37,878 bases of DNA. It comes from a virus (lineage: Duplodnaviria > Caudoviricetes). The translations under genes were made by a program, and so were the position numbers. Position 1 is the first letter of the stretch. Each line of letters starts with the position of its first letter. The notes beneath the pieces were generated by a model, which was given only the letters and a program-made list of their open reading frames with translations, made no database searches and had not been told where the DNA came from. Location: the IMG/VR virus record IMGVR_UViG_3300020045_005114, positions 1 through 37,878 of that record; one strand, written 5' to 3'. Shown one piece after another: positions 2,301 to 36,851 of the stretch.

Positions 2301-2520
2301 TAACGTTTGCCGTTACAAAACGCCACCTGAGTGGATGCGTAGGTTCGGCGGTGGGTTGTAACGGTTGTTAGTAGCTGGACTGATTTTAAAAACTAAATAT
2401 TAATTATAAAAACTAAAATTATGAATGTAGTAAGTTTATTTTATATCTTTTTGCTAATAATTTGCATTATAAAAATAAGAAAAGATTACTTTGAAAAGTA
2501 AATGCAGTCTTGATACTAAC
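2301..2520 (+). mobile_element. Integron-like cassette C1 (hairpin 2301-2370 plus 26-aa ORF)
   Basis: TAAC-gttt-GCCGTTACAA...TTGTAACGGT-t-GTTA; GTTAGTAGCTGGACTG (2367-2382) is inverted at CAGTCTTGATACTAAC (2505-2520). Confidence 0.75.
2421..2501 (+). CDS. 26-aa hydrophobic peptide MNVVSLFYIFLLIICIIKIRKDYFEK (cargo of C1)
   Basis: Read manually; AT-rich leader; single hydrophobic stretch. Confidence 0.45.
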   Translation: MNVVSLFYIFLLIICIIKIRKDYFEK

Positions 2521-2550
2521 TATCTGATAACCGCTATAAATGTATTACAA
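2517..2550 (+). other. attI-like cassette landing site, copy 1
   Basis: TAACTATCTGATAACCGCTATAAATGTATTACAA; homologous to 35917-35950 and to 26182-26215 (minus). Confidence 0.7.
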
Positions 2551-2552
2551 TT

Positions 2553-2666
2553 ATGAAAAAAGTAATTAACACGCTCGAAAAGAGTATCGAACTCGCAAAA
2601 GAATTGAATCTCAACAGTTATACTGTTGTTAAAGATGGATTTGTAATAAATGTTAAAATAAAGTAG
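2553..2666 (+). CDS. 37-aa protein (MKKVINTLEKSIELAKEL...)
   Basis: Read manually; conserved at 35953-36066. Confidence 0.65.
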   Translation: MKKVINTLEKSIELAKELNLNSYTVVKDGFVINVKIK

Positions 2667-2671
2667 GAAAT

Positions 2672-2884
2672 ATGGATAAAAAAATAAAACAATTAATAAA
2701 AGAAATTGAAAAGGTAGAGAACATGTATTTAGATAAAAAAGTAATTTTAATTGAATTAAAAAGAATTATAAAAAACAATACTTTTTATTGTAAAAATGAA
2801 AATTTTGTAAAAAATTATCACGGTGAATATTGTAAAAACCAATGTGAAGAATGCGGTTTAAAAAGTAACAAATCTAAACCCTAA
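2672..2884 (+). CDS. hypothetical protein with C-terminal Cys4 module
   Basis: FYCKNE.FVKNYHGEYCK.QCEEC is shared with 26524-26913. Confidence 0.7.
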   Translation: MDKKIKQLIKEIEKVENMYLDKKVILIELKRIIKNNTFYCKNENFVKNYHGEYCKNQCEECGLKSNKSKP

Positions 2885-3269
2885 CCTTAGGCAAATAAAA
2901 CCATAAAAATACAAATAAACACAATATAAAAAACAGGCTTGTATAGTCTGTTTTTTTTGTTTCCTTAGTCTTTGTTATTTCAATTGTTTTAGTGATTGTT
3001 TGCCTAATGTAAATCGTTTTTGTGAGTATATTATGCTTACTTTTATCTTTTGTAATTATAACGTTCTTATATTCTTTACCGTTTAGAAACATTGACTTAT
3101 TATTATCAAATGGTTTGATAGTGAATATATCATTTAAGATAGTTTCTTGCTTTAATATTACATCATTATTAGTTGTGATAGTTCCTGATTCAATCGTACT
3201 TTTATTTAGCTTAACGTCTCGTGTTGTAGAGCATGAAATGAATAACAGTAAAATGATTAAATATTTCAT
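2874..3269 (-). CDS. putative unimolecular spanin (lipoprotein with C-terminal TM)
   Basis: Lipobox-like LLFISC, beta-rich middle, C-terminal hydrophobic helix, directly after endolysin. Confidence 0.7.
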   Translation of the reverse strand: MKYLIILLLFISCSTTRDVKLNKSTIESGTITTNNDVILKQETILNDIFTIKPFDNNKSMFLNGKEYKNVIITKDKSKHNILTKTIYIRQTITKTIEITKTKETKKTDYTSLFFILCLFVFLWFYLPKVRV

Positions 3270-3745
3270 GAAAGATATTTTTTAAGTAATTCTTTTCGGT
3301 GTTCAATACCATTTAAACCTCCGTTAATTTTTTTAGTTATTCCTATAATATCATTTTTATCAGCTAATTTATTCAATGCTTTTAAATTCCAAAACCATAA
3401 AGCACTAATCATTGCGTTTGCCTCTTGCTCTAATAATTCGGGTTTATTTAAAAAATCAATCTTAGTGTCTTTAGATAACTTTAAATAATTATAACGTCCT
3501 GTAATTTGAATGTAACCACGACCGCAATATTTTTGACCATCGTTATCATCTTCGGGGGTATTTCCTAAACTTTCAGCAAGTTTGCCAATATCATATTTAT
3601 CTAAATATTTGTCGCTTCCTAATTCACGCAAATACTTAAAACCTCCGCTTTCATGTTCAATTTGAGCCATGAAATGTGCAATTCTTAACCGAGTATTAAG
3701 TCCATATTTTTCGAATAAAGTTTTATATTTTGTTTGTAGGTTCAT
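3266..3745 (-). CDS. endolysin, glycoside hydrolase family 19
   Basis: HFMAQ..HESGGF, GRGYIQITGR.NY, ITKKINGG.NG motifs. Confidence 0.92.
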   Translation of the reverse strand: MNLQTKYKTLFEKYGLNTRLRIAHFMAQIEHESGGFKYLRELGSDKYLDKYDIGKLAESLGNTPEDDNDGQKYCGRGYIQITGRYNYLKLSKDTKIDFLNKPELLEQEANAMISALWFWNLKALNKLADKNDIIGITKKINGGLNGIEHRKELLKKYLS

Positions 3746-4049
3746 TTGTCTTGTCTTCTATAAATTCATGATGCCATTTTTTGTAAAAATTCGCATTTTT
3801 TTTTTCTTGTAATTCTTGTTCTAATATTTCACTTCTTATTTTAGAATCACGTATGTAAGTTCTTAATTTATAATAAGCAAAAAAAACACCTATTAAAGTC
3901 AATAAAAACTGTACAAAATTAGTTGCATTTGATAAATAAAACTCCCCAAACGTAAGCTTTTTTACAACGTCAATTAACGTAAACGAGTACAAACAATAGA
4001 AACTATAATTTAACGTGTTGAATAGATATTTTATTAAATGCATAATCAA
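3723..4049 (-). CDS. membrane protein, holin candidate
   Basis: Hydrophobic helix plus charged C-terminus, upstream of endolysin. Confidence 0.55.
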   Translation of the reverse strand: MIMHLIKYLFNTLNYSFYCLYSFTLIDVVKKLTFGEFYLSNATNFVQFLLTLIGVFFAYYKLRTYIRDSKIRSEILEQELQEKKNANFYKKWHHEFIEDKTNEPTNKI

Positions 4050-4347
4050 AAATTTGGGAGGTAATTATTAACAAATATAACGAAAAATAAAGTTGTTCGT
4101 TTAATAATTCGTATATGCTATTTAAGAATATAATTGCAATTATACATCTTATAAGATACACATTATTTTTTATAGGGCAAAAGAAATAATGTAATAAAGC
4201 AATAGCACATATGAAGGTATCAATTAAATCAAACGTAAAATAGTTTTCATTATAAAACCGACTATCTTTTAAAAATAAAAAACAAAATACCCAATTACCC
4301 ACTATTATAATAGGCAAGCAATTGAGTATTTTACTAAAAATTTTCAT
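4003..4347 (-). CDS. multi-TM membrane protein in lysis module
   Basis: 3-4 hydrophobic segments. Confidence 0.6.
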   Translation of the reverse strand: MKIFSKILNCLPIIIVGNWVFCFLFLKDSRFYNENYFTFDLIDTFICAIALLHYFFCPIKNNVYLIRCIIAIIFLNSIYELLNEQLYFSLYLLIITSQIFDYAFNKISIQHVKL

Positions 4348-4601: not shown

Positions 4602-4611
4602 ATTTATTTAT

Positions 4612-4773: not shown

Positions 4774-4778
4774 GATTT

Positions 4779-5939
4779 TTAATTTGTTAGTAAAAATGAT
4801 GAATGGAACATTGAGTCTCCAGAATTAGATAATTGCCCAACTTCAAAAATATAATTGTCAATTGTCGGGTCAAATGTGTATGTGTCTATGGCAACAGAAC
4901 TATTAATCATATCTGAAGGTGCGTTACCTGTTGAAAAACCTTTTAAAGTAGTGCCTTCAATTGAAAATCTTCTTGAAATAACCTGATTTAAGTTAGCCGT
5001 ACTCCCTAAATTGCTTGCTATTATTGTCGCACCAGTCAAAGTGTTAGTCGTGTTTATTCTAATCGTTTGAGTTAAAGTTCCAGCAGTCCCAATCTTTCCA
5101 ACTCTTGACGTCATTATATTAAGAAATCCTCCACTTTTAAACGTATTAGCAGGTATCAATTGCGAAAATAAAACAGTTTGCGAAATAGTCCCTGTTATAG
5201 TCGAACCAGTTGTTGTATTAGAAATTATATTACGTGTTACATTAGCCAAATAATCATAAACAGCATCTCCACTTGGTGACTTGTCCGTTACTCCGTTGGT
5301 TATTGTTTGTGTTATTTTTGCGTCAACATCATCCGTAGTGGCTAAAGTATAATCTCCAGCTACTGTTTTTGCAGGGAAGTTTAGAGTGGTATCTACTGTC
5401 GGGTTGATTGCCTCTATATTCGTTACATAAATATCATTACGCTGTGTTATACGGACTATACCTCCTAAAACTTGAATTGCAGAACTTTTACCTAAAGAGT
5501 TATTATTCGAAGAAATTTCAACCCTATCATACTCTGTTCTTATTGCCGAAAAATTATCAGTATCCGTATTATCTCTTATAACTATTTTGAACTCTAAGTT
5601 TTCTTCGCCATCATAGTCATTCAATAAAGATGCATATCCAGTTTGATTAGAGCTTATAGTTTCTGCATAACTTCCAACATCTAAAACTTTCTGTAAATCA
5701 ATTGCATTAACCGCATCAACTGTCGGGTATTTAGTTCCCGTTCCATCAATAGCAAGGGAGTTTTGTTTATTTGCAACATCTTCTTTGCCTGATATAATAG
5801 GCGTTATATTACTTTTACGTATCTTTTTGCTCGTACCTTGTGCGCTTTCTGTTGTATCAGAAACATCAATTATATACAAAAAGTCATTATCATCTGGAGT
5901 CGTTAACTCTGTTTTGTCTGTTAATCTTGCGTTTGCCAT
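4779..5939 (-). CDS. tail fibre / receptor-binding protein
   Basis: T/S/N-rich modular protein with KEDVANK..TKYPTV.AV and ITNGVT..PS.DAVYD linker motifs. Confidence 0.7.
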   Translation of the reverse strand: MANARLTDKTELTTPDDNDFLYIIDVSDTTESAQGTSKKIRKSNITPIISGKEDVANKQNSLAIDGTGTKYPTVDAVNAIDLQKVLDVGSYAETISSNQTGYASLLNDYDGEENLEFKIVIRDNTDTDNFSAIRTEYDRVEISSNNNSLGKSSAIQVLGGIVRITQRNDIYVTNIEAINPTVDTTLNFPAKTVAGDYTLATTDDVDAKITQTITNGVTDKSPSGDAVYDYLANVTRNIISNTTTGSTITGTISQTVLFSQLIPANTFKSGGFLNIMTSRVGKIGTAGTLTQTIRINTTNTLTGATIIASNLGSTANLNQVISRRFSIEGTTLKGFSTGNAPSDMINSSVAIDTYTFDPTIDNYIFEVGQLSNSGDSMFHSSFLLTN

Positions 5940-5946
5940 ATTTTTT

Positions 5947-6513: not shown

Positions 6514-6995
6514 CCTGCTGTTAAATTCATTCCCTTAATAGCATTAACTTCATCTTGGTAACATTTATACTCTGGTAAGTAATTTTTACAAATCCACTTG
6601 TTAAATCTAATCACATACATCTGAGCCATATTTTTATACTTACCAGCTAAAAATTGTACTTCTTGTTTATCTACAACCTCTATTTTATCGCCAGTATGCT
6701 TATAAATTCCTGCATTATCAACCATATAAGAAGCAATCTCTATATACTGCGCTACTGATTCATTTTTAGTGATTGGCTTTATAAAATCATTGTATAATTC
6801 CAAATACAAACCGCTTAACGTATTAGCTGTTTTGTCAGCAACTATTTTATCATACAATTGGCTACCAAGTAATGGTTCGATAGTTGTTAACTGAACGTTT
6901 GCGATACAAAAAACAAATTTATCCGTATCTGTATTTCCACTCAATATTGTTGAGCTTGTCATTTCTTGAGGTGTTATAAATAATAATTCTGCCAT
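6501..6995 (-). CDS. head-tail adaptor protein
   Basis: Follows portal; Q...IEPLLG.QLY.KI motif. Confidence 0.65.
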   Translation of the reverse strand: MAELLFITPQEMTSSTILSGNTDTDKFVFCIANVQLTTIEPLLGSQLYDKIVADKTANTLSGLYLELYNDFIKPITKNESVAQYIEIASYMVDNAGIYKHTGDKIEVVDKQEVQFLAGKYKNMAQMYVIRFNKWICKNYLPEYKCYQDEVNAIKGMNLTAGWKL

Positions 6996-8671
6996 TATTG
7001 AAATCTTTTATTTGTTGGTAAAAATCCATTGTAAGGCATATCTTTCGGCTCTTTATAAACTAAGCTATTATTTGCTTCTGGAATAAATTTATTTTCTTTT
7101 CTTGTTTGAGCAGGTGTAACTTCAACTGATAACGGACTGTTAACATCGGGATTTTTGCTTCTATCTTTTTTTGCATATATCACTCTATACCATTTATGGT
7201 GACAATCACCACCGCCTTTGTATAACCAAATAGAATATGTATTTGCTCCCTCAGGACCCCATCCTGCGTTTACCGATTTACTACCCATTGCAATAATATC
7301 TTCTTTACGATATATCTTTGATGCACTTACCATTTTTTGGCAAAATTCCCTTTGTGGGTTATTTGAACCTGTATACTTATACCTTACTTTATAAATGTCG
7401 CTATCTTGCGCACTCTTTGCGTTTGGGTTTGCAGTTCCTGTTGTAGCTAATTGTAAGTCGATTTTTTCTTCTTCTTCATAGTCAACTTCCCTTTCATCTA
7501 TAATATCCCATTCGTTTAAATCTTCATCTTCACCCAATCCTAAAAACTCATCTAAAGCACTCTTTTTTTTTTCGTCGTGTGATTGCATTTGAACTGCTTT
7601 TTGTTCGGTTAACGGAACAAAATATAAGTCTAAATTAATATTGTAAAACGTTAGGATTTCTTCTAATGCTTCGGTTATATATCTTTGTTTTGGTTGTATC
7701 ACACGTTTCATTAATTGAGCTTCCGCCTCGTCTAATTCGTTTGCGTTATTACCTAATCCACCATCTGACATAATACCAAATAATTTAGGACTTACAACTT
7801 TGTGTCCCGTCATTATTTGCTGTCTGCTTTCACCCGTTAGATATTCCCATTGCTTATGTTGAGCATCATTTACAGGAAAAGGTATTACGGTAATTTCAGC
7901 ATCTCGACCGTTGAAACTAATCACAAAGTTCATAGCATTTGGTGAGCCTGTTAATTTAGCTTTTATTTTATTTTCTAAATCGTCCTTTTCTTCAGGAGAA
8001 TAAGTACCACCGTCTGGAATGTTTATAATATATCCAGCACTTAAACCTTTTTTAATTGAATTAATATAAAAATTAGCCAGTTCTTCCTCCATTTCAGCGT
8101 AGGGTAAAGCACTTAAATAGTCAGGGTCTGAAAAATAATTTTTACCAGCTTTATATGGCTTAATACAATAAATTTCGATATCTTCTTTTGAAGTTCCGAA
8201 AGCAGGATAATAAGTTGGTGTGTATTTTTGTGGATTACTCCAGTCTTTAGAATGCCAATAACCATCGATTACACCATCTTCATTTTCTAAACAAGGTACT
8301 ATCTGTTGTTTCGGAATATGATATATAGCGCCTAAACTTTTTTTATCTTTTGATTTAATTACTTGAATAGACGCCTCACCGAATAACTCAAAGTCAGAAA
8401 TAATTTTACGCAATTCTTTTGAACTAAAAAGAGAAACAAAGTTTATCCAAGCACTTGTATTCACATTTTTAGAACGTAAACCACTACCATATATAAGATT
8501 ACAATAGGAATCTATAATTGCTGAATTAGTAGGCGAACCGTTGAACCTATCAATAACATATTGATAAAATGAATTTTGTTTACCGTTTAAAACCCAATTT
8601 TTAGATTTGTTTTCCTCTAATTTAGGTCTTACGTAGTTACTTAGTTGTAATAATCTTATATCGTTACTCAT
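6995..8671 (-). CDS. portal protein with extra C-terminal domain
   Basis: SPTN.AII, Y..PDY, LTG..NA..F...FN, GH.V.SP.LFGI, GLGNNA.EL, I.P.Q; acidic linker then a Cys/His domain. Confidence 0.85.
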   Translation of the reverse strand: MSNDIRLLQLSNYVRPKLEENKSKNWVLNGKQNSFYQYVIDRFNGSPTNSAIIDSYCNLIYGSGLRSKNVNTSAWINFVSLFSSKELRKIISDFELFGEASIQVIKSKDKKSLGAIYHIPKQQIVPCLENEDGVIDGYWHSKDWSNPQKYTPTYYPAFGTSKEDIEIYCIKPYKAGKNYFSDPDYLSALPYAEMEEELANFYINSIKKGLSAGYIINIPDGGTYSPEEKDDLENKIKAKLTGSPNAMNFVISFNGRDAEITVIPFPVNDAQHKQWEYLTGESRQQIMTGHKVVSPKLFGIMSDGGLGNNANELDEAEAQLMKRVIQPKQRYITEALEEILTFYNINLDLYFVPLTEQKAVQMQSHDEKKKSALDEFLGLGEDEDLNEWDIIDEREVDYEEEEKIDLQLATTGTANPNAKSAQDSDIYKVRYKYTGSNNPQREFCQKMVSASKIYRKEDIIAMGSKSVNAGWGPEGANTYSIWLYKGGGDCHHKWYRVIYAKKDRSKNPDVNSPLSVEVTPAQTRKENKFIPEANNSLVYKEPKDMPYNGFLPTNKRFQ

Positions 8672-8969: not shown

Positions 8970-8970
8970 A

Positions 8971-9972: not shown

Positions 9973-9993
9973 AAATAGAAAAATAAAAAAGAA

Positions 9994-10503
9994 TTAAACC
10001 AAAGCCAAAAATGCTGTTACGGTTGTAGCATCTAATTTAGGAGAAAGTGAACCTGTTGTAGAAACACCCGTAAGCGTGTAACCGTTTAAGTCTGCTTTTG
10101 CTCCACCTGTTGACTGAGCTACTGTAAAATCTATACCATCATCTATTCCGATAGCGTGAAAAATACCGTTTCTATCTTTTACGACTGCCATAGGGAAACC
10201 GTAAGCTAATATGTTCATTTGAGCCGAAGTAACTGCGTCAATTTTCTTAAGCACAAAAGTACTTGTTTGCGTGTTTACTGTCGTACCATTATTTCTGTCT
10301 GGTACTAAAGATTCTGCAACATTATTTCCATCTCCCTCAAGTTCATACTCAAAGACTGTTGTAAGGAGTGGATTAATTGCTGTTGCAACCCCTGCTAATA
10401 CCGTGAAAGGATTTTCAACAAAATTAAAAAGATATAGTTTCCCGATACCTCCTAAACCTTGCTTACAAGCCTTTTCTCTACCTGCTGTAATATCACAAGC
10501 CAT
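9994..10503 (-). CDS. major tail (tube) protein
   Basis: Follows capsid gene; MAC.IT.GR...CK..GGI, D.NG, G..DG, DLNGYTLT motifs. Confidence 0.7.
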   Translation of the reverse strand: MACDITAGREKACKQGLGGIGKLYLFNFVENPFTVLAGVATAINPLLTTVFEYELEGDGNNVAESLVPDRNNGTTVNTQTSTFVLKKIDAVTSAQMNILAYGFPMAVVKDRNGIFHAIGIDDGIDFTVAQSTGGAKADLNGYTLTGVSTTGSLSPKLDATTVTAFLALV

Positions 10504-10521
10504 ATAATTATTTGTTTAAAT

Positions 10522-10547
10522 TAAGGGCGATAACTAAACCGCCCTTG
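10522..10547 (-). terminator. hairpin after major capsid gene
   Basis: AAGGGCG...CGCCCTT inverted repeat. Confidence 0.55.
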
Positions 10548-10559
10548 TTACTTATTTAA

Positions 10560-11468
10560 TTATGCGATAGGTCTTGCCCAAACAATCTCAGCACCATTGT
10601 AGTAACCTACTCCAGCATTGTAAACCATAGTTCCGATAATTTTACCGTTAAGTAAAGTATCATCTTGGTCAATCATTCTAACCTCGTTGTGGTCTGCCAA
10701 TAATCCAGTTGCAAAGATTAAGTTTTTAGGTTCAGCAATAACGATTGTGTTAGCTGGCAATCCGTTAACCTCTTCAATCATGTATTTACCAAACTTCAAA
10801 GTTGTGTTTGCATCACCGCCCAATCCATTAGAAATTCCTTTTGAAATTAACCAAAAGTTATAATATTGTGCGATGTCTGGAGAAACACCAACTTTCAAAC
10901 CTTTTCTTCTTGTGTCGATAGGTACTGCGTTGATAGCAAGTTTAATCTGAGCTTCAACGTTAGCCTCAGTAACGGTGTCTAAATCAACATCGATAACAGT
11001 TGCATCAGCTAAAAATTGTTTCAAGAAACCATCAAATTCGTCTGCGTTTGTAGCGTCACCGTTCCAAATATTGTCATCTAATTCCTCAGCAGTTTGAGCC
11101 AATTTTTCAACAAGAATTGCATCCATTACATCTTTTGGTGCGCTGTCATTGTGAGCACTTGCACCCATAGAATCTTCACTCCATTGCGCTCTGAAATCTT
11201 CTTTACAAACTTCGAAATCATCTTTAAATTTCTTAGGTTCTAAAACTTTTTCGCTTAGTGTAATAGCTCCAGCAGGAACGTGTCCGCAAGTGTATTCTCT
11301 TTTACCACCTGTTAGGGCTATTTTTCTAAGATTTAGTTTATAATTTACGTTTGGAAATACAGTTACAAATCCTTTTGCAATTGTATCCGCTTCTTTGAAT
11401 GCTTGTCCTACTATCTCGCCCGCTTCTTTGCCTGCGTAGTTGGATGTTACTGTTGTAGTTGTAGCCAT
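10560..11468 (-). CDS. major capsid protein
   Basis: 302 aa after protease/scaffold; Y.G..AG, C.EDF...W, IW.GD, FDGF, NL.F.TGL..D.NEV. Confidence 0.85.
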   Translation of the reverse strand: MATTTTVTSNYAGKEAGEIVGQAFKEADTIAKGFVTVFPNVNYKLNLRKIALTGGKREYTCGHVPAGAITLSEKVLEPKKFKDDFEVCKEDFRAQWSEDSMGASAHNDSAPKDVMDAILVEKLAQTAEELDDNIWNGDATNADEFDGFLKQFLADATVIDVDLDTVTEANVEAQIKLAINAVPIDTRRKGLKVGVSPDIAQYYNFWLISKGISNGLGGDANTTLKFGKYMIEEVNGLPANTIVIAEPKNLIFATGLLADHNEVRMIDQDDTLLNGKIIGTMVYNAGVGYYNGAEIVWARPIA

Positions 11469-12999: not shown

Positions 13000-14595
13000 C
13001 TAACCAAGTGATGCTTCACTTACTATATTCCTATCTAAACTTTGCGAAGTGCTTACGTCTGAACTTACTACATACGCTTTAATCGGTGCGCCTTGTTGTG
13101 CTAATCCTTGCGCTATTTGATTTGTTCCTGTGCCTTGTACTAAATTGAAAGATGGTGCGCTTGTTGTTGTTCCACCAGTCGAACCTCTACCTACAGCGTC
13201 ACCACCTCCACCACCTCCGCTTCCTAATAATTGCTTAGCTTTAGCAACATTTGAAAATATCATCGAAGCACTATTGGCGTAACTCGCAATGGTTGCTAAA
13301 GGACCTACAAAAGGCGCTGCTGGTCCTGCAACTGCTGCTGCTTCTTTTCCTGCTTTTATTGCCATTGGTATAGCTGTTGAAATCGCTGTCGAAGTATCGA
13401 CTGCAATTTGAGCAAGTGCGATTCCTTTTCTAATTGTTTGCGCTGCCTTTGATTTTTTTAATCCTAATGCTTCCAAAGAATCTATAATTGAAGCTGTGCT
13501 TTCAGCTATTAAAAGAGTTGCATCTTTTACATTTTGCTCTGTTTGTATTTTATTTTTAGCGTCTGTTTCTCTTTGCTTTTGCTGAGTTTCATATCTTTTT
13601 TGAGAAAGCATTAATTCGCTTTCCATTGTTTCTGATTTTTTCTTTTTATCTTCTTCTGCTTTTTCGAAATCAGTTTTTAACTTTTCGTCACGCAATACTT
13701 CAAACTCTTTTTCTACTTCATTAAATTTGCTTAACTCGTCTTTTCTGTCCTGTATCTTTTTTTCAAGTGCTTTTTTAGCTTCTTCTTTTGCTTTTTCAGA
13801 CGCTATTTTGTTTTCTTCATTGATTTTATCTTGCGCTTCTTTTCTAACCTTTGCTAAATCTTCATTACGCATTTTGTCAATAGCCAACAACTCACGATTC
13901 AAACGTTCAGCAAGTTTCTTTTGATTTGCACCCTCCTCTTTTATAGCTTCGTTATACGCATTCTTTGCATCTATTTTAGCTTTTGTATATTTATTAACTA
14001 AATCGCCCTCCTCAGCCATGAACTTTTTATTCATAGCTAAAGATTTATCAGCTTGCTCTGTTAAACTTGCTAAGGCTCTTTCTGCTTCACTTGTAACTCC
14101 TATAAAATCAGTAAAACCATTTACTAAATTTTCTACAAAATCCCCCACCTTTGCAAGTCCCGGAACAACATTTAAAACCGCTTGTTTAACTTTATCAAAG
14201 TTTGCAATTAACAAACCTAAACCAACAACCAAAGCACCTATACCTGTTGCAACTAAAGCGATTCTAAACAACTTCATTGCACCTGTCGATGTGCCTACAA
14301 CGGTACTGTAAATTGCTTGCTGGATTGACGCTAACTTTTGACTTTTAGTAAATAAAACAGACGCTTCAACTGCATCCTTTACAGTCATAGCAAGTCCACC
14401 TGTTGCATCGTTAAGCAATCCCATTGCACCGCCATTTTCTAAGACAGCATTTGAACTGTCGCCCATAGATTTAGCAACGCCATCATTTGTTTTAGAAACT
14501 TTATTAAGCGAACTGTTTAGCTCATCAACTTGTTTATTAACTTTATCGATTCCAGTTTCTTTAACAACTATGTTTATTTGTTTCTCGATAGCCAT
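13000..14595 (-). CDS. tail tape measure protein
   Basis: A/K/E-rich coiled coil, ATGIGALVV hydrophobic segment, C-terminal IKAYVVS.DV...Q. Confidence 0.85.
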   Translation of the reverse strand: MAIEKQINIVVKETGIDKVNKQVDELNSSLNKVSKTNDGVAKSMGDSSNAVLENGGAMGLLNDATGGLAMTVKDAVEASVLFTKSQKLASIQQAIYSTVVGTSTGAMKLFRIALVATGIGALVVGLGLLIANFDKVKQAVLNVVPGLAKVGDFVENLVNGFTDFIGVTSEAERALASLTEQADKSLAMNKKFMAEEGDLVNKYTKAKIDAKNAYNEAIKEEGANQKKLAERLNRELLAIDKMRNEDLAKVRKEAQDKINEENKIASEKAKEEAKKALEKKIQDRKDELSKFNEVEKEFEVLRDEKLKTDFEKAEEDKKKKSETMESELMLSQKRYETQQKQRETDAKNKIQTEQNVKDATLLIAESTASIIDSLEALGLKKSKAAQTIRKGIALAQIAVDTSTAISTAIPMAIKAGKEAAAVAGPAAPFVGPLATIASYANSASMIFSNVAKAKQLLGSGGGGGGDAVGRGSTGGTTTSAPSFNLVQGTGTNQIAQGLAQQGAPIKAYVVSSDVSTSQSLDRNIVSEASLG

Positions 14596-14714
14596 ATGCG
14601 TTTTATTTTTTTAAATGTATTATCTAAACTATTTTTTCCTTTCGCTATCTCTATATATTTACCCGCCCCGTAAAATGGATTAGATTGCAGTAATGTTATT
14701 ATCTCAGATATCAT
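14574..14714 (-). CDS. 46-aa protein (MISEII...YIEIAKG), not in ORF track
   Basis: Read manually; overlaps both neighbours as in translational coupling. Confidence 0.6.
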   Translation of the reverse strand: MISEIITLLQSNPFYGAGKYIEIAKGKNSLDNTFKKIKRIWLSRNK

Positions 14715-15250
14715 TTTCCTTTCCCTATTCTCGTTACGCATAAATATCTGTTTTTGATTGTCATCCCAACAATAGGGTTAACATATAGTAAACCTCCGTT
14801 ACTAAGGAATGAAGCCCCTACTGGTAATATCCAACTTGCAGAAAAGTAATCGTCTAAACCAGCGCCTTTTACAATCGGTTGGCTAACTGACCTATAATTA
14901 ACACCCCCAACTTTTAGAAAAACAGATAAAGATAAGTTTGTGCCTACGGGAACTACGCCCGTAAATGAAAAATCAACTCCTATAATGTCGTTAAGTGCCA
15001 CAGGTGTTATCTTAGCATTTGAATCCATCAAAGTCAAACCTCCATTTTCTTCTGGAGTTGCCGAGAATGAAACTAAATTATCCGTCAAAGCGGTGAGTGT
15101 TTGTGTATTTGTCGTGTCCGAAATACTTTGAAATCCAGTAGCGCTATATAACTCGTCAAAGTTATCATTTGTTTTATCGAATGCGACTCTTAAAACATCA
15201 CCTGTCCCATCGCCTGCCGTTGTTCCTATTCCTATTGTTTGTTTAGCCAT
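14711..15250 (-). CDS. tail tip / baseplate-associated protein
   Basis: N-terminal IG....DGTGD.LR.AF.K.N.NF.ELY resembles the N-terminal motif of T4 gp9/gp10-type baseplate proteins. Confidence 0.65.
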   Translation of the reverse strand: MAKQTIGIGTTAGDGTGDVLRVAFDKTNDNFDELYSATGFQSISDTTNTQTLTALTDNLVSFSATPEENGGLTLMDSNAKITPVALNDIIGVDFSFTGVVPVGTNLSLSVFLKVGGVNYRSVSQPIVKGAGLDDYFSASWILPVGASFLSNGGLLYVNPIVGMTIKNRYLCVTRIGKGK

Positions 15251-25315: not shown

Positions 25316-26158
25316 TTAATAAATTGTTTCAATTAAATAAGGCAAACTATCTTTATTAACATCAAAATCGAATGAATCAAAAGAAACTCCCCTTGCATAT
25401 GGGTTAGATACATTTATAGTCTTATCATCATTTACTTCTAATTCAATAACGCTCTCTGCTTTTTTCAAAACATACGTTCCCAAATGCCCTAAAGGCTTTC
25501 CTGTGGTTCCTGATTTATGTATCACAGTAGTAACGTGTATATTATAATCATAAGTCCATTTCAATAGATAGTCGCTGGCTTCTTTTGACATCACAATATC
25601 ATTAGTATTTTCAACTAAATCCGCAATCCCATCAATTGAAACTAATTTTACAGGACTTTTATAAAGTTCTTTTTGATTTTTCAAGCAATAATCAATCAAT
25701 AATAATCTTTGTGTAGAAGATAACTGCCTTGTTGTATAACATTTATAGTTTTCATATTGCACAGCTGTAATATCCTGCACCCGTCTAAATGTCCTTTGAG
25801 CGTAATATTTACCCTGTTCCGTATCAAAGTCTAAAATGGTATAATCAGTATCACGATGTCCTTTAATATTACCAAATAATACATTAGAATTACCACCAAT
25901 ATAACAAGCTAAGAAAGCACTTTTTAAGAAAGATTTCTTTGCTTTTGAAACCGCAATAATTGCACTAAATTCCCCAGCAGTCATCACAGCAGTTGGGTAT
26001 ATTTTATTCTTATATTCGTGCGTTCCAATAGATAAAAGTATCTCTGGAGCTATCATTTCTTCCGATAAATCTACAAAGCATTCGTTTTGTATAGTCAAAA
26101 AGTCTAAAACCACTTCGCTATCCGTTTTATTTTCTAAGTCATCAAAGTTTAAATCCAT
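25316..26158 (-). CDS. RecA-fold AAA ATPase (RepA/DnaB-like helicase domain)
   Basis: Variant Walker A AVSKAKKS, FDTEQG, IDGIADLV, VIH, GHLG..KKAE. Confidence 0.8.
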   Translation of the reverse strand: MDLNFDDLENKTDSEVVLDFLTIQNECFVDLSEEMIAPEILLSIGTHEYKNKIYPTAVMTAGEFSAIIAVSKAKKSFLKSAFLACYIGGNSNVLFGNIKGHRDTDYTILDFDTEQGKYYAQRTFRRVQDITAVQYENYKCYTTRQLSSTQRLLLIDYCLKNQKELYKSPVKLVSIDGIADLVENTNDIVMSKEASDYLLKWTYDYNIHVTTVIHKSGTTGKPLGHLGTYVLKKAESVIELEVNDDKTINVSNPYARGVSFDSFDFDVNKDSLPYLIETIY

Positions 26159-26181: not shown

Positions 26182-26215
26182 TTGTAATAAATTTATAGCG
26201 GTTAGCGGATAGTTA
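26182..26215 (-). other. attI-like cassette landing site, copy 2
   Basis: Minus strand TAACTATCCGCTAACCGCTATAAATTTATTACAA. Confidence 0.7.
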
Positions 26216-26256
26216 TATTCCAGCTTCGAGCAACTTTGTAACCAAAGCTACTATGG

Positions 26257-26520
26257 CTATAATTTTGATATTTCTGTTTTTACATCGTTCCAGAATTTTA
26301 TTCTTCCGTTATTATACGCATTAGCCATTTTTCTGTAATCAAACCTTTCGTCGATTATTTCATCAGCTACTTTTAACGCATATCTTTTAGCGTCTTTCAT
26401 TGTTATAATATTCTCTTTTTCGTCCATTGGATTTTTCCAAGCGACATTGCTTACTGCATCATAATCAATTTCTATAACGAAATGATTTACTAATTGCTTT
26501 GCTTTTTCTTTTGCTTTCAT
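26257..26520 (-). CDS. hypothetical protein, MTPKEKA family (cargo of C2)
   Basis: MKAKEKA..LV, AL.VADEI, W..VK.EI.KL. Confidence 0.75.
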   Translation of the reverse strand: MKAKEKAKQLVNHFVIEIDYDAVSNVAWKNPMDEKENIITMKDAKRYALKVADEIIDERFDYRKMANAYNNGRIKFWNDVKTEISKL

Positions 26521-26523
26521 AAT

Positions 26524-26913
26524 TTATTTACTTTTTAATTTACATTCTTCACATTGTTTTTTGCAGTATTCTCCGTGATAATTTTTCACAAAAGTTTCGT
26601 TTTTGCAGTAAAAACTTTTATTTTTAAAATCTACTTTTGTTGTTTTCCCTGTTTCATTTTCAGTTAAAATAACTCCAGTTAGTTTGTTTTCGCCATCATC
26701 TGTCCATAAAAAATCACACTTAGCAATTTCAATATTTTTTAAGTTTTTAGTATCGTTTGGGATTTTTTCTCTAACAGCTTTTATTGCTTCATTGTAATAT
26801 ATCAGCCATTGCGCAAAATCATTTATTAATAATTCAATATTATCATCATTTACAATATTGCAAATTTGATTTAGCGTTTTAATCGTGTACGTTTTGTCTT
26901 TTGTGTTTTCCAT
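26524..26913 (-). CDS. hypothetical protein with C-terminal Cys4 module (cargo of C2)
   Basis: C-terminus shared with 2672-2884. Confidence 0.75.
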   Translation of the reverse strand: MENTKDKTYTIKTLNQICNIVNDDNIELLINDFAQWLIYYNEAIKAVREKIPNDTKNLKNIEIAKCDFLWTDDGENKLTGVILTENETGKTTKVDFKNKSFYCKNETFVKNYHGEYCKKQCEECKLKSK

Positions 26914-27020
26914 TTTATTTATTTATTAATTGTTGTAAAAAAAGCCGAGAATATAACAATCACTACAAGCTAGTTGCCGAAGCATTGGAATAAATAGGCA
27001 ACCAGCTTGTAGTTTTAACG

Positions 27021-27518
27021 TTATTTATAATTATCTATTTCTTTTAAAAATTCATTTGCACTATTGAAAAAAGAATTACTCACACTTTCAAATGAAAACT
27101 CTTTTTTTATCAAATCTATTATTTCTTTTTCATTTTCTTGTAATAAATTAATATTACCATTTTCTTTATAGTTTAAATGGTCTAATTCAAAGCCTTTCGA
27201 TAATAAAAATTCTTCTATTTTTTTGCTATTAATATTTTTATGCAAATTTTGCAAATGAAAACATAAAGGTTCTTTTAAAATATCAGATGTGCTTTTTATA
27301 GCTGTTTTAATATTTCCGTGATAATGTAAATTTTGATTAAAAGTATAACATAATAACTTTGCAAATAGTAAATTATCATTAACATACTTTATTTCGCTAT
27401 TTTTAAGCTCGTCATTCAATTGTTTTAACGCTTCTATATCTTCTTTATAGATTTTATCTTTTGAACGTTTAAAGACATTAAAAACTCTTTTTAGTGCGTT
27501 CTCTGTTTTCCAACTCAT
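27021..27518 (-). CDS. hypothetical protein in replication module
   Basis: 165 aa; its stop codon is the TAA of the cassette TAAC. Confidence 0.8.
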   Translation of the reverse strand: MSWKTENALKRVFNVFKRSKDKIYKEDIEALKQLNDELKNSEIKYVNDNLLFAKLLCYTFNQNLHYHGNIKTAIKSTSDILKEPLCFHLQNLHKNINSKKIEEFLLSKGFELDHLNYKENGNINLLQENEKEIIDLIKKEFSFESVSNSFFNSANEFLKEIDNYK

Positions 27519-32350: not shown

Positions 32351-32352
32351 TG

Positions 32353-32532: not shown

Positions 32533-32555
32533 AATTTCTATTTATTTAATTTTAT

Positions 32556-32616
32556 CAAAGATAGTCTTTATATCAACTGGTACAACATAATGATATAATT
32601 TATATTAATTCTAAAT
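32556..32616 (-). promoter_or_regulatory. host-type promoter with upstream Fur-box-like palindrome
   Basis: TATCTTTG at 32556-32563, TTG 19 bp upstream, palindrome at 32598-32616. Confidence 0.7.
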
Positions 32617-32659
32617 AAAAACCCACCGTTTAAAGTGGGTAAATAAGTGGGTGAATAAA

Positions 32660-33034
32660 TTAGAACGGTAAATCGTCTGGTTCGTCTTTGTTAATGTTTG
32701 TTGCTGGTGCAAAAGCTTCAGCAGATGGCATTTCGGTAACTTGTTCTGTCTTAAACACTTTCCACGCTTGTAATGATGTGAAATATTTATCTTTCCATTC
32801 GTTAGTTGATATATTAAAATCAACTTTTACGCTATCCCCAACTTTGTTAAACTTATTAAAGTTTTGCACTTTTTCTTCTCCAAATATCTCAAAGCAAAAT
32901 ATTTGTTTTTTACCGTCGTAACCATCATTATTAGTAACGATAAAGTTTTGCTTTTGCCAATCGGTTCCAGCTTTTGTAACTCCTGATTCTAACGGTAATA
33001 CTTTTTCAATAATCCCTGTAATTTCTAATGACAT
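32660..33034 (-). CDS. DUF3127 family ssDNA-binding protein (allele B)
   Basis: G.I..VLP..SG....W.KQ.F, F.I...EW..KYFT.L.AWKV, DDLPF. Confidence 0.85.
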   Translation of the reverse strand: MSLEITGIIEKVLPLESGVTKAGTDWQKQNFIVTNNDGYDGKKQIFCFEIFGEEKVQNFNKFNKVGDSVKVDFNISTNEWKDKYFTSLQAWKVFKTEQVTEMPSAEAFAPATNINKDEPDDLPF

Positions 33035-33052
33035 AATTTCTGTTTTTAATTG

Positions 33053-33289
33053 TTATTTATTATTTCTTCTTTCTTCTCTTAATTGATATTCTCTTTCTGC
33101 TAATTGTTTTTTACCTATTTTAACAGCTCCATAAAATATTGAATATTGTTCATCTTTCATATTTTCTGACCAATCACTTTTTTCCTCGTCTACTCTTTTA
33201 GATGATAAATAAGAACTTCTTATATCTTCTGGAATTGACATATAATGTTCTTCGCTCATTCTCAAAAATACTTCTCTGTTACTTTGCAT
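33053..33289 (-). CDS. hypothetical protein (allele of 415-651)
   Basis: Near-identical protein. Confidence 0.8.
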   Translation of the reverse strand: MQSNREVFLRMSEEHYMSIPEDIRSSYLSSKRVDEEKSDWSENMKDEQYSIFYGAVKIGKKQLAEREYQLREERRNNK

Positions 33290-33295
33290 AATTAT

Positions 33296-33838
33296 TTATT
33301 TTTTAAGTTCATTATTAAATTTACCAAATTGGTAACGTATTTTTCCATTATTATCTTTACAGCCTAAATATGTTAGTTTTCCATCTGTGAACTGTGAAAA
33401 CCATACCCAATCTTTTAGTTTAAAATTCCAAGTCGGTTTATTTGTGGTTTTATCAAATTCGTCCGATGTTAATTGAACTTGAATAAGTGGATAATCGTAC
33501 AATTCTCTACCAATTCCGAGATTAAAACAAGCTCTTTTAAACGCATCAGATGCTTCACCTTTTTCCTTTTCGGTGTTGCTTTCAGTTCCTACATCTTGTT
33601 TCCAAATCCATTGGCTAAGTTTGTCGCTCCAAATACCGACAGAACAAAACAAATGATTATCTATTAGTTCGTATTTCTTTTGCCAACCCTCAACGTTATA
33701 AACATCGTCAAGGCGCTTCATGTCAACTCTAGCGTCTTTATACGCTAAGATTGTAGCATAACCTCCTTTATTAACTGATTGTACTCTAAAGTCTATTTCA
33801 TTAATTTCTAAAGGTGTATTTATTTTTAACTGACTCAT
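33296..33838 (-). CDS. Rad52/Sak-like SSAP (allele of 658-1200)
   Basis: 175 of 180 aa identical. Confidence 0.8.
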   Translation of the reverse strand: MSQLKINTPLEINEIDFRVQSVNKGGYATILAYKDARVDMKRLDDVYNVEGWQKKYELIDNHLFCSVGIWSDKLSQWIWKQDVGTESNTEKEKGEASDAFKRACFNLGIGRELYDYPLIQVQLTSDEFDKTTNKPTWNFKLKDWVWFSQFTDGKLTYLGCKDNNGKIRYQFGKFNNELKK

Positions 33839-33925
33839 AACTCTATTTCTTTTAATTTATTTAATAATAATGTGTTTTCGCCTTGCTCGGCTAATAAAAT
33901 GCAATAAGCTAATAATTCTTTATTT

Positions 33926-34150
33926 TTATCCTCTTTGCTCATCATTTAATATTTTATAGATTTCTTCTTCGTAATTGTTTAGTAATTCTTGAATGTCGAT
34001 TGGATTATCTTCTAATGTTATCTTATGTACTTCAACATCAGGAAATTCCTCTGGTTCGTGTTGTGTTGCTGGGTAGTATTTACCGCTAACTGTATAATAA
34101 GCGGTTAAACTTACTCCGTTTAATTCAAATGTGTGTGTGTTTAGTTTCAT
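33926..34150 (-). CDS. hypothetical protein (allele of 1566-1790)
   Basis: Homologous. Confidence 0.8.
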   Translation of the reverse strand: MKLNTHTFELNGVSLTAYYTVSGKYYPATQHEPEEFPDVEVHKITLEDNPIDIQELLNNYEEEIYKILNDEQRG

Positions 34151-34155
34151 AATTC

Positions 34156-34404
34156 TTAATTATTTAATAATTCAATAAATTCTTGTTCAGTTATTTCTGT
34201 TAAATTTTCATCAATCCACCAAATATTAAAACTATTATAAAAATCTGAAAATCTAAATGTATTTTTATAAAAACTATTTTTTACAAATTTATAATCGTCT
34301 TTATGCGTTCCTAATTTTAACTTATTATCAATACATAATTGTTTCATTCTATCACATTGTTCCTGTGATTCCATTACTACATAAGTGTTGTATATTGTTT
34401 TCAT
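34156..34404 (-). CDS. hypothetical protein, allele B only
   Basis: Coupled ORF. Confidence 0.7.
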   Translation of the reverse strand: MKTIYNTYVVMESQEQCDRMKQLCIDNKLKLGTHKDDYKFVKNSFYKNTFRFSDFYNSFNIWWIDENLTEITEQEFIELLNN

Positions 34405-34619
34405 AATTCACGTTGTTTTATCATTGCATCGGCAGTGTCATATGACAATTCAGTTACACAAAATTCAGCAAATCCTTTTGCTAAATTTCCTCTATCTATT
34501 TGATGTTTTAAAATTACTTGCATAGCTTTGGCAGCAAAATAATCTCTTAAGGTCATTCCTGAGTAGTCTTCACTTATAGTATCACAAGGGAATGCGTATT
34601 TTGTTTCTTTATCTTTCAT
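34401..34619 (-). CDS. small phage protein, GMTLRDYFAAKAMQ family
   Basis: AFP...GMTLRDYFAAKAMQ...SY..ADAM..R. Confidence 0.8.
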   Translation of the reverse strand: MKDKETKYAFPCDTISEDYSGMTLRDYFAAKAMQVILKHQIDRGNLAKGFAEFCVTELSYDTADAMIKQREL

Positions 34620-34623
34620 AATA

Positions 34624-34731
34624 TTAATTATTAGCTACTTTATGAAATGCACGTACCATACGGTCATTATCATTTAAGTAAATGTTATTAATTCTTTTCA
34701 TCCATTGGTAAAATTTTTCTGTGTTGCTCAT
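34624..34731 (-). CDS. 35-aa protein (allele of 1796-1903)
   Basis: Read manually. Confidence 0.7.
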   Translation of the reverse strand: MSNTEKFYQWMKRINNIYLNDNDRMVRAFHKVANN

Positions 34732-34756
34732 AATTTCTTTGTTTTAAATTGTTTGA

Positions 34757-34859
34757 CAAATATACAACTAAATTTGAATAATACAACATTTTGTTGATAT
34801 TTATAATAATTCTAAATTAGCTTAGTTTGTTAATTATATACTTATATGTTGTATATTTG
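34757..34859. promoter_or_regulatory. Divergent promoters with Fur-box-like palindrome (allele B)
   Basis: Near-identical to 1929-2031; palindrome at 34799-34817. Confidence 0.75.
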
Positions 34860-34910
34860 TAAAAGAAATAAGGAAGTGATATTCACGGCAATTTCTAAAC
34901 TCTTTTGATT

Positions 34911-35075
34911 ATGGGATTACATTATGTTATTTTCGACGGATCTTCTGCTTATGTTACTGATGAGCAAGATATGTTAAGTATCACTGCTAAAGACAAAGAT
35001 ACCGAAGTGGTATTCAAGTCTATGAATTTAGACAAAGCGTCTGACTTCGCAGATGATTATAATGAGAGCCTTTAA
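34911..35075 (+). CDS. 54-aa acidic protein (MGLHYVIFDGSS...), not in ORF track
   Basis: Read manually; first ORF after the rightward promoter. Confidence 0.6.
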   Translation: MGLHYVIFDGSSAYVTDEQDMLSITAKDKDTEVVFKSMNLDKASDFADDYNESL

Positions 35076-35100
35076 TTATGCTCTTTAAAAAAAATATATT

Positions 35101-35319
35101 ATGAAAAGAGATTTAGATTATTACCAAAAATGGTATAACAAATGGATTCGTGTTTTTAGATATTTATGTGATAAATGCGAACAAACACACAGGGTTAAAT
35201 ATCTAATCCAAGAAGTTAGAAAGCATTGGCAACTTATTGAATGGAGATTGCTCTGCGTGAAATGGTTTGACTTAAAAGCAGAAGAAAGTAGTATGTTTCC
35301 AAAAGTATTGAGATATTAA
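35101..35319 (+). CDS. hypothetical protein
   Basis: ORF track; operon orientation. Confidence 0.65.
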   Translation: MKRDLDYYQKWYNKWIRVFRYLCDKCEQTHRVKYLIQEVRKHWQLIEWRLLCVKWFDLKAEESSMFPKVLRY

Positions 35320-35527
35320 TAAAAAATTATTTCACATTGAATTTAAAAATACACTCGAAAACGAAAAGCATTTTTACTATGGAGATTTGACAATATTGTG
35401 CAATACTCATGAAATTGTAATTTCAAAATTTACACTTGATAGATGGAATTTTGAAACGCATTTCGAGAATGAAATTTGCATTATTCGGAAATCTGAATTA
35501 GTTATTAGTAAACGTTCTCTAAAATGA
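35315..35527 (+). pseudogene. open frame lacking ATG (..KKLFHIEFKN..HFYYGDL..IIRKSEL..)
   Basis: 70 sense codons, only ATT/TTG as possible starts; ends just before the TAAC of C3. Confidence 0.45.
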
Positions 35528-35531
35528 GTGA

Positions 35532-35920
35532 TAACGCTTGCCACTTTGCTTAGTGACGGAAAATTCAAGACTGATAACAACCAAAACAAACTAATTTTTA
35601 AATTAAAAACAAGATGGACAAAGAAACAAAAGTACCGACATTGAGCAAAACGGCTGTTAGCGGTAGTATTAATGAACTGCTTTCCAAGTTTGATAACGGA
35701 TTAGAACTGTATCGTAATAATGCGGTTTTTGCTAATTGTATCGAGCATTTAGTAAGAGGTGGAGACATTTATAAAATACTTGAACAAATAATTGTAATGC
35801 AATACAATACCCAAGAAAAACTTACTGAACTAATTACGAGCGGAGTTTTAAGACAGGAAATTATAGTTTCAAAAGAAAAATATGATGAATTAACGAGTCG
35901 TCTGTAATATTACCGCTAAC
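35532..35920 (+). mobile_element. Integron-like cassette C3
   Basis: TAAC-gctt-GCCACTTTGCTTAGTGACGG...CCGACATTGAGCAAAACGGC-t-GTTA; GTTAGCGGTAGTATTA (35656) is inverted at TAATATTACCGCTAAC (35905-35920). Confidence 0.8.
35614..35907 (+). CDS. hypothetical protein (cargo of C3; starts inside the hairpin)
   Basis: ATG at 35614 lies between the hairpin arms; AVSGS is encoded across GTTA. Confidence 0.75.
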   Translation: MDKETKVPTLSKTAVSGSINELLSKFDNGLELYRNNAVFANCIEHLVRGGDIYKILEQIIVMQYNTQEKLTELITSGVLRQEIIVSKEKYDELTSRL

Positions 35921-35950
35921 TATCTGCTAACCGCTATAAATGTATTACAA
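35917..35950 (+). other. attI-like cassette landing site, copy 3
   Basis: TAACTATCTGCTAACCGCTATAAATGTATTACAA. Confidence 0.7.
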
Positions 35951-35952
35951 TT

Positions 35953-36066
35953 ATGAAAAAAGTAATTAACACGCTCGAAAAGAGTATCGAACTCGCAAAA
36001 GAATTGAATGTCAATAGTTATACTATTGTGAAAGATGGATTTGTAATAAATGTTAAAATAAAGTAG
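35953..36066 (+). CDS. 37-aa protein (allele of 2553-2666)
   Basis: Read manually. Confidence 0.65.
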   Translation: MKKVINTLEKSIELAKELNVNSYTIVKDGFVINVKIK

Positions 36067-36067
36067 A

Positions 36068-36280
36068 ATGAAAACAAATGAAAAAAATCCAGATTGTTTA
36101 GGTGCTGTTAGCAGTAGTGTTTCTTTTCCGAAACAAAAAAGAGTGATGTTCAAATTTGATGATGATGAACCTATACACTTGAACTCAATTTTTGAAGGTG
36201 GAGAATTTATTATCAAGTTGAAAGAAGGTAAAATCAAATTTGAAAAAGAGGGCAAGTCGTTTGAGTTGTATGTCGAATAA
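36068..36280 (+). CDS. hypothetical protein (cargo of truncated cassette C4)
   Basis: AVSSS encoded across GTTAGCAGTAGT (36107); matching end at 36775-36789. Confidence 0.7.
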   Translation: MKTNEKNPDCLGAVSSSVSFPKQKRVMFKFDDDEPIHLNSIFEGGEFIIKLKEGKIKFEKEGKSFELYVE

Positions 36281-36777
36281 CGTTCCCTCGCTACAAGCGG
36301 TTTGGGAAAATTACAAAAACATCACCTAATAATTACAAATAACAACAAAAATGGACAAATCTATAAATTCAAAACAAATACCCAAATCTCTTGTAGCGAG
36401 TGTTAGTGTTTCGGTTTTTTTGGTCGGAAAAGCACAAACAGACTTTTGGAAATGGTACTTATCGAAAGACACATTAGATTCTCATAAATTAACAGGACAA
36501 CATAAGTTTTCAAACGATAATGTTATAAAAGTTGGGTTTTTAGCGGAATCATTAGTATGTCAAAATGCAATTATAATAGAATGGTTTGATAGCGTAAATA
36601 TTTATATTACTTCAAAGCCTTTAGAATACACAACTGGATTTGTAGCATGGCAGTATTCTATACGTAATTATCAAAACACTCCTTATCGATTCTCTGACAG
36701 AAAAGGTGCTTATACCGAAGCAATTATAAAAGCGAACGAGATTTATAACGAGAAGTTCTTTTAAACTGAACACTAAC
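36278..36777 (+). mobile_element. Integron-like cassette C5 (nested)
   Basis: TAAC-gttcc-CTCGCTACAAGCGGTTTGGG...CCCAAATCTCTTGTAGCGAG-t-GTTA; GTTAGTGTTTCGGTTT (36402) versus AAACTGAACACTAAC (36763-36777). Confidence 0.8.
36351..36764 (+). CDS. hypothetical protein (cargo of C5; starts inside the hairpin)
   Basis: L.GKA..DF.KW, I.EWFDSV.IYI, AI.KANEIYN; ATG between the hairpin arms. Confidence 0.8.
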   Translation: MDKSINSKQIPKSLVASVSVSVFLVGKAQTDFWKWYLSKDTLDSHKLTGQHKFSNDNVIKVGFLAESLVCQNAIIIEWFDSVNIYITSKPLEYTTGFVAWQYSIRNYQNTPYRFSDRKGAYTEAIIKANEIYNEKFF

Positions 36778-36851
36778 ATTGCTGCTAACGGTTAGTGGCT
36801 TTGTCGTTGCGACTTATGAAAACTAATATTAATTTTTAAAACTAAACGAAA

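Follow-up and report, generated by a model that had tools for sequence, protein, structure and literature searches.

Introduction

Integrons combine a recombinase gene, a fixed attachment site (attI) and tandem cassettes, with crossover within AAC/GTT, and the geometry of their cassette sites (attC) involves R and L boxes, a near-symmetric central spacer and extrahelical bases. Some are sedentary in chromosomes, and some have an inverted integrase (Cury 2016, PMC4889954; Ghaly 2021, PMC8618304); for Bacteroidetes proper, IntegronFinder 2.0 gives just one complete integron, in Salinibacter. Here we examine the complete 37,878-base viral record IMGVR_UViG_3300020045_005114 (the window), which has genes for a terminase, a portal, a capsid-like protein and an endolysin, and which carries rows of gene cassettes ending at an attI-like site. 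We consider it probable that such cassettes are moved in trans by an Xer-like recombinase that cuts folded single-strand sites inside AAC. The window is an enzyme-less, partly decayed example of this cassette system, and our comparisons point to an integron-like system of Bacteroidota phages and hosts that is barely described.

Like integrons, this system has a recombinase gene, a fixed attachment site and tandem cassettes; crossover falls within AAC/GTT, the two ends of each cassette are complementary, folding is strand-biased, and the recombinase has SAM_4 and PF00589 domains. Its gene occupies the usual intI position in phage rows and points into the row in hosts. Unlike integrons, the window has no integrase gene in cis, phage cargo lies on the folding strand, often with start codons inside the site, and there are satellite rows that end in a ribbon-helix-helix (RHH)-like gene; host cassettes, unlike those of the phages, keep the canonical cargo strand. 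The hairpin that opens each cassette, here called its head, departs from attC in its 5-versus-1-nt loop, in having fixed mismatches in place of bulged bases, and in an outer stem of ~14 bp with an invariant T. The recombinase differs from IntI in having no additional domain between the catalytic R and H-x-x-R, and its clade differs from XerA/XerC/XerD in sitting at cassette rows. The system works like an integron, but its integrase, site geometry and polarity are not those of one. An earlier note, made from the sequence of the window, had proposed an integron-like system; its cassettes and TAAC crossover stand, while the likely enzyme is Xer-like, without the IntI insertion, and not IntI. The passages of Qi 2023 on clusters of attC sites lacking an integrase (CALINs) name no dedicated recombinase, terminal platform or reversed polarity (PMC9892861). 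Titles and abstract starts in PMC-CC and bioRxiv, which leave subscription journals and bioRxiv supplements uncovered, gave no account of a recombinase-linked system.

Four closed cassettes and a constant terminal site

Four units of the window, C1, C2, C3 and C5, are closed at both ends, exactly at the coordinates at which the earlier note had placed four intact units, and they are the only ones; none occurred in any of 60 block-wise dinucleotide shuffles. Their heads are the four top-scoring TAAC...GTTA stems of the window, and a covariance model trained on 52 heads (including C3 and C5) recovers C1, C2 and a half head at 36786 as well. A further unit, C4, is incomplete:

2301-2520, plus strand: C1, with a 70-nt head (2301-2370), a 26-codon open reading frame (ORF; 2421-2501) and a closing arm (2507-2520)
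26212-27023, minus strand: C2, with a head (27023-26954), ORFs 26524-26913 and 26257-26520, and a closing arm ending at 26212
35532-35920, plus strand: C3, with a 128-nt head (35532-35659) and a closing arm (35907-35920)
36068-36789, plus strand: C4, with a right arm and GTTA at 36107, a 70-aa ORF (36068-36280) and a closing arm (36776-36789)
36278-36777, plus strand: C5, with a head (36278-36405) and a 137-aa ORF (36351-36764) that starts in the head

C4 had been described as truncated. This applies to its left arm alone; the closing arm at 36776-36789 is retained (12/14 match) and, because it sits there, C5 lies nested inside C4. The point of insertion is a secondary TAAC that forms the stop codon of the C4 ORF. 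The head of C2 begins at the stop codon of a 165-aa gene, and the 97-aa ORF of C3 (35614-35907) starts in the head loop and runs through the 3' arm and GTTA. When the outer arms were compared with all ends in a 5x5 matrix, each matched its own end best (7, 6, 9, 8 and 7 of 10 variable bases), in line with the earlier claim that every start pairs with its own end and not a neighbour's, except that the C3 and C4 arms cross-match at 6-7 of the 10. The whole C3 hairpin is no stabler than its shuffles (z -0.1), and the remaining heads have z scores of -3.6 to -6.4.

Directly after C1, C2 and C3 stands a constant site, TAACTATCYGMTAACCGCTATAAAT, with three exact matches where none was expected:

2517-2555, plus strand: terminal site A1, TAACTA...AAATGTATTACAATTATG, followed by a 37-aa ORF (2553-2666), with the usual RHH-like gene missing
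35917-35955, plus strand: terminal site A2, the locus of A1 in a second copy, followed by a 37-aa ORF (35953-36066)
26182-26215, minus strand: terminal site B, upstream of an AAA_25-like gene (25316-26158)

Cassettes differ among related phages exactly at TAAC

We retrieved the loci of relatives via the terminal site or flanking genes and found differing cassette rows that end at the terminal site. Relatives that are 88-96% identical in a flanking protein bear different cassettes, joined exactly at TAAC, and the 416 cassettes that we parsed fell into 399 clusters. The form of the terminal site that lacks an RHH gene is also found with varying cassettes (L001/L006, L004, L021, L024 and L141). 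In 19 pairs of homologous cassettes, identity drops to background just outside TAAC on both sides, and the head stays with its body in 18 of them. The crossover had been predicted to lie inside TAAC; boundaries in related genomes fall there, and not away from the motif. By genome comparison, the site is fixed with a variable cassette upstream, as is an integron attI. An endolysin-anchored scan gave nothing further.

Heads and bodies are not always inherited together. In public contigs, C5 occurs whole between other cassettes, its body occurs behind another head, and its head occurs before other bodies. More broadly, 130 pairs share a head and diverge right after GTTA, and 20 share the start of the body with different heads. 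On these sequences, GTTA may be a second, rarer exchange point, or heads may be reused when cassettes arise. Of 107 long cassette ORFs, 23 encode DNA methyltransferases, and for 69 there is no match in Pfam. In L389, a cassette for a C5 methyltransferase (4941-5921) overlaps a 235-aa ORF (5146-5853) on the same strand in another frame.

A Xer-like recombinase adjoins rows in phages and hosts

A profile search found no PF00589 recombinase encoded in the window, as the earlier note had said. Phage rows elsewhere end at a gene for a tyrosine recombinase of ~265 aa, directly downstream. Among loci kept for the best 80 of 392 relatives, head-strand units lay upstream of the gene in 45 of the 48 with at least 1.5 kb of upstream sequence, and downstream in 0 of 78. 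In one close relative of the window (L017/L389, a single contig), a row ending at an RHH gene occurs alongside one ending at the recombinase gene. Of 45 relatives of the window that bear cassettes, only 2 hold an intact gene of the recombinase clade, so the enzyme-less state is the norm among them. Two cultured phages, Cellulophaga phage Ingeline and Polaribacter phage Leef_1, also encode relatives of the recombinase.

To sample hosts, we started from a Crocinitomicaceae genome and took 150 genomes of its order in the Bacteroidota, which we take to be Flavobacteriales. The head model matched in 106 of them. The search for arrays with a linked tyrosine recombinase, which had been put forward as a check, returned both, in phages and in hosts. 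Within 40 host stretches chosen for strong head matches, a tyrosine recombinase gene (product of 280-385 aa), oriented into the row, stood at the end of six rows. Cargo lay opposite the head strand in 67 of 73 host cassettes and on the head strand in 173 of 179 phage cassettes; the earlier observation that phage cargo is reversed relative to canonical cassettes thus extends well beyond the window.

The recombinase has SAM_4 and PF00589 domains, and its best sequence matches are XerA/XerC/XerD (NF040815; PDB 4a8e, 5hxy), with no long alignment gap. In 26 phage proteins and 17 from hosts, the R-to-H spacing is 84-92 aa, compared with 131 in IntI2, which leaves no IntI insertion, and TIGR02249 matched the recombinase at <265 bits and split in two in all eight comparisons. 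The host form has an extra N-terminal part of ~80-100 aa. Separate XerC/D-like genes of the same genomes branch apart from the cassette-linked clade in a quick tree with long branches. We also considered canonical IntI as the enzyme and rejected it, with 0 of 301 genomes of the sampled order above the TIGR02249 cut-off.

Three host contigs (L313, L321 and L334) stop precisely at the terminal-site GTTA, which suggests that assembly breaks at a varying first cassette, and in 10 of 30 the contig end is no more than 600 nt from the recombinase gene. In L289, identical genes for a 310-aa tyrosine recombinase (9989-10921 and 14483-15415) each stand just after a same-strand head; we suppose that they may belong to an IS91-linked element inserting at these sites.

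Heads are predicted to fold on the gene-sense strand and cassette ends to pair

The head consists of a TAAC/GTTA core, the 5-versus-1-nt internal loop, a ~20-bp stem and the fixed mismatches C14.A133 and G25.T123, and the 52-head alignment has no conserved bulged base. Of 20 stem pairs, 18 change on both sides, a covariation score reached in none of 500 shuffles. We asked which strand folds better in the circular form and found that it was the gene-sense strand in 250 of 265 sites, which fits this strand being the equivalent of the attC bottom strand.

In the predicted circular form, the ends of a cassette are complementary, as in integrons, here over ~14 bp. With unit boundaries fixed by stems alone, the outer arm matched its own end at 6 or more of 10 positions in 230 of 261 units, compared with 23 of 261 for the upstream neighbour, and outer pairing averaged 7.7 versus 3.2 in shuffled sequences. 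The outer pairing had been put at about 15 bp; it measures ~14 bp and is interrupted at position 11 of the closing arm by a fixed non-Watson-Crick T, which is unpaired in all 261 units.

Phage ORFs start inside the head in 60 of 173 cases, those of C3, C4 and C5 included. The hairpins had no match in Rfam, neither the C3 nor the C5 head was predicted to be a terminator, and sigma-70 matches were at chance level.

Whole-cassette differences in cultured phages

Near-identical isolates of the Polaribacter phage Freya, of which we examined 7 of 10 records, differ by whole cassettes at a site just upstream of the recombinase gene. The overlap at the junctions is AAC only in comparisons of F10 with F9, F5, F2 and F1, and the junctions of F10/F9 (307 bp) and F10/F5 (3198 bp) are internal to the records. 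Isolate F6 has a different cassette of 472 bp at the same site, again with an internal junction. Crossover between G and TT (AA and C on the bottom strand), the point used by integrons, agrees with these overlaps, which narrow it down to AAC. In the phage Danklef, D5 differs from D2-D4 by a 781-bp methylase cassette at TAAC, and the integrase has lost its 5' part. Such variation beside a broken integrase fits action in trans, as read from the sequences, which do not date the event. In Danklef_5 (L497 ~6960-7030), the 5' part of the integrase gene is replaced by the end of the last cassette together with a fragment of a head, which run into the middle of the gene. The paper that reported the isolation of Freya and Danklef took the integrase as a sign of temperate life, and the words 'integron' and 'cassette' are absent from its main text (PMC8776804).

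A row in the Polaribacter phage P12002L was called a CALIN by Qi 2023, who reported two sites 'with divergent directions' as canonical attC; with IntI1, attC1 failed to integrate and attC2 integrated (PMC9892861). We found that attC1 is a head of the class described here and that attC2 corresponds, in reverse complement, to the terminal site of that row. In our own scan the P12002L rows were exactly of this class, with methyltransferase cargo and about ten closed units, and no integrase gene is named among the 82 annotated coding sequences. HattCI flagged one P12002L head of this class. The gene gp34, which adjoins the terminal site, was considered as a recombinase and set aside; it carries DUF6549.

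A proposed mechanism and its alternatives

We propose that the gene-sense strand of each head would fold and act as an attC bottom strand. Recombination between two heads would excise a circle whose two ends add the 14-bp outer stem. The circle would then insert at the terminal site; insertion at a secondary TAAC would be rare, C5 being a possible case. This last step resembles off-site insertion of integron cassettes by IntI enzymes at short GWT cores (attG; Loot et al., bioRxiv 10.1101/2022.09.11.507474), with C5 at an isolated TAAC inside another cassette, a likeness that we draw from one nested unit. Occasional recombination at GTTA would swap heads between bodies and change the start codon and N-terminus. 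If expression ran from the far end of the row toward the terminal site, phage cassettes would be oriented opposite to host cassettes. We infer that the enzyme is supplied by a related phage or the host and that the recombining form is single-stranded.

Several observations weigh against this mechanism. The earlier note had looked to empty-site alleles and circle junctions as checks. In the close family no terminal site is strictly empty (a cassette end closes 74 of 78, and the other four resemble decayed ends), and circle junctions were absent from the contigs of six runs (X1-X4, X6 and X8), in which assembly drops rare forms and none of which covered half of the stretch. An empty allele at site B does exist, in relatives such as L050, where site B and its cassette are both absent; because the terminal site is lacking too, site B itself came by another route. 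Beyond TAACTA, the RHH-type and recombinase-linked terminal sites differ (host, phage and RHH-type sites have TAACT in common and then diverge), so recognition of the RHH-type site by the same enzyme is assumed. Among host genomes, co-occurrence is modest, with 72 having both gene and sites, 19 the gene only, 34 sites only and 25 neither (odds ratio 2.8, p 0.006, from genomes that are not independent), and of 20 host genes with sufficient flanking sequence, only 6 have a head within 1.5 kb. The heads were picked by stem score, which inflates pairing counts and biases covariation, and the junctions of Freya F1, F2 and F8 lie at record ends. Finally, the enzyme lacks the IntI insertion, which Messier and Roy are said to have found in 2001 to be required for IntI activity.

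Some of these points would also follow if the rows of the window were fossils: the recombinase would have assembled them in a donor or ancestral phage, homologous or illegitimate recombination would have brought them here as blocks, and shuffling would have ceased. The window sites without an RHH gene, the decay of C4, of the half head at 36786 and of the unit at 2051, the gain of site B together with its cassette and the weak fold of C3 all suit such a history. However, the cassettes of relatives differ exactly at TAAC even at RHH-less sites, C5 is nearly identical to copies that have other neighbours, and Danklef varies precisely despite its broken gene, and we regard fossil rows as unlikely. 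It is also conceivable that the hairpins are expression signals (initiation stems or terminators) and that a Rad52/Erf-like protein swaps the genes by micro-homology, a process comparable to that at boundary sequences and PeSL elements. The window does encode an annealing protein, the 60 of 173 ORFs that start inside a head would be expected of initiation stems, a strand bias favouring G-T pairs fits an RNA fold as well, and arm families recur. Against this, the overlaps are 3-4 bases with unrelated sequence on one side, the inverted ends are cassette-specific and lie hundreds of bases apart, in hosts the fold is on the non-coding strand, a dedicated recombinase abuts the rows, and the C3 and C5 heads were neither called terminators nor, like the other hairpins, matched in Rfam; we therefore give this explanation little credence.

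The smallest chance of all we give to ordinary integron cassettes, captured from hosts as CALINs and moved by canonical IntI. Their AAC/GTT core and layout are the same, and both the CALIN call for P12002L and the integration of one of its sites by IntI1 speak for them (Qi 2023), but the head-class site attC1 is the one that failed with IntI1, and the site that integrated is the reverse complement of a terminal site. Moreover, no genome of the 301 passes TIGR02249, the geometry of the sites differs, and phage cargo faces the other way.

Beyond the probable movement of the cassettes in trans by an Xer-like enzyme, we lean slightly towards a broader proposal, that a second integron system, independent of IntI, operates in Bacteroidota and their phages. 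It would comprise an Xer-like enzyme acting on folded single-strand sites that integron finders miss, chromosomal rows in most sampled genomes of one order, phage rows of reversed polarity, satellite platforms served in trans, and shuffling of start codons and N-termini at GTTA. This class of site is present in 106 of 150 genomes of one Bacteroidota order, despite the single integron given by IntegronFinder 2.0. If hairpins are indeed recombined without the IntI insertion, the origin of integrons and the role of that insertion become directly testable, and phages would have a site-specific source of mosaicism for counter-defence genes. For experiments, filled and emptied alleles are already available in the cultured phages Freya and Danklef, together with their hosts.

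The gene behind the terminal site

On manual reading, a gene of ~60 aa follows the terminal site in 39 of 46 loci, and anchoring on this gene alone placed a TAAC site 28-62 nt upstream in 69 of 83 loci (not dereplicated). All three terminal sites of the window are without it. The model of the protein (pLDDT 72) has two helices and no strand in the monomer, and all six Foldseek rows were Arc, ParD2, SvtR, SegB, NikR and KacTA, which we take to be RHH proteins, with E values of 4-8. Together with a DUF6290 match below cut-off, this weakly suggests that the modelled protein is RHH-like. We also considered it as part of a recombinase and dropped the idea after a weak search, in which 14 longer homologues had only HNH/NUMOD, GIY-YIG or no Pfam domains. 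An Atlas search with the protein returned unnamed viral clusters only, and the terminal-site pattern had 0 matches in a search of genome contigs.

In L113, L147 and L149 and in P0002, P0006-P0008 and P0010, GIY-YIG or HNH endonuclease genes separate the terminal site from the RHH-like gene or are fused to the latter. The sequence TGTATTACA, at 2542-2550 and 35942-35950, is a perfect 4-1-4 inverted repeat that is conserved in RHH-type terminal sites; by its sequence it is a candidate operator.

Repeated ends and further features of the window

The same region occurs at both ends of the window, at 1-3800 and 32598-37878, in diverged copies whose segments are 85-98% identical. C1 and C3-C5 are therefore two alternative fillings of a single locus, which adjoins lysis genes, and C2 occupies a second, separate locus. 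The window ends possibly come from two genomes joined in assembly. The remaining features are as follows:

32598-37878, no strand assigned: the region of 1-3800 again, in diverged form, reflecting either a terminal overlap or two related phages joined together
2024-2031, plus strand: TAnnTTTG motif at the far end of the row, with a copy at 34852-34859
2051-2304, plus strand: decayed unit upstream of C1, with TAAC, a 68-aa ORF (2084-2290) and a closing-type arm ending at 2304
35522-35535, plus strand: closing-type arm of a decayed upstream cassette, AAATGAGTGATAAC
36786-36815, plus strand: left arm only of a further head, without a matching GTTA arm
658-1200, minus strand: Rad52/Erf-like annealing protein, with a copy at 33296-33838, relevant to the homology-driven alternative only

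TAnnTTTG is presumably the Bacteroidota -7 promoter consensus, and as a candidate promoter it could drive transcription of the cassettes toward the terminal site. The endolysins of the two end copies are unrelated (chitinase-like at 3266-3745, phrog_7 type at 37386-37826), and their alleles of the single-strand DNA-binding protein differ; the contig may join two phages. An inverted-copy match of 111 nt (80%) links 2758-2868 with 26528-26638, where the 70-aa gene after A1 resembles the end of the first C2 ORF. The best named matches of the C3 head were in the Flavobacterium phages 6H, 1H and 23T.

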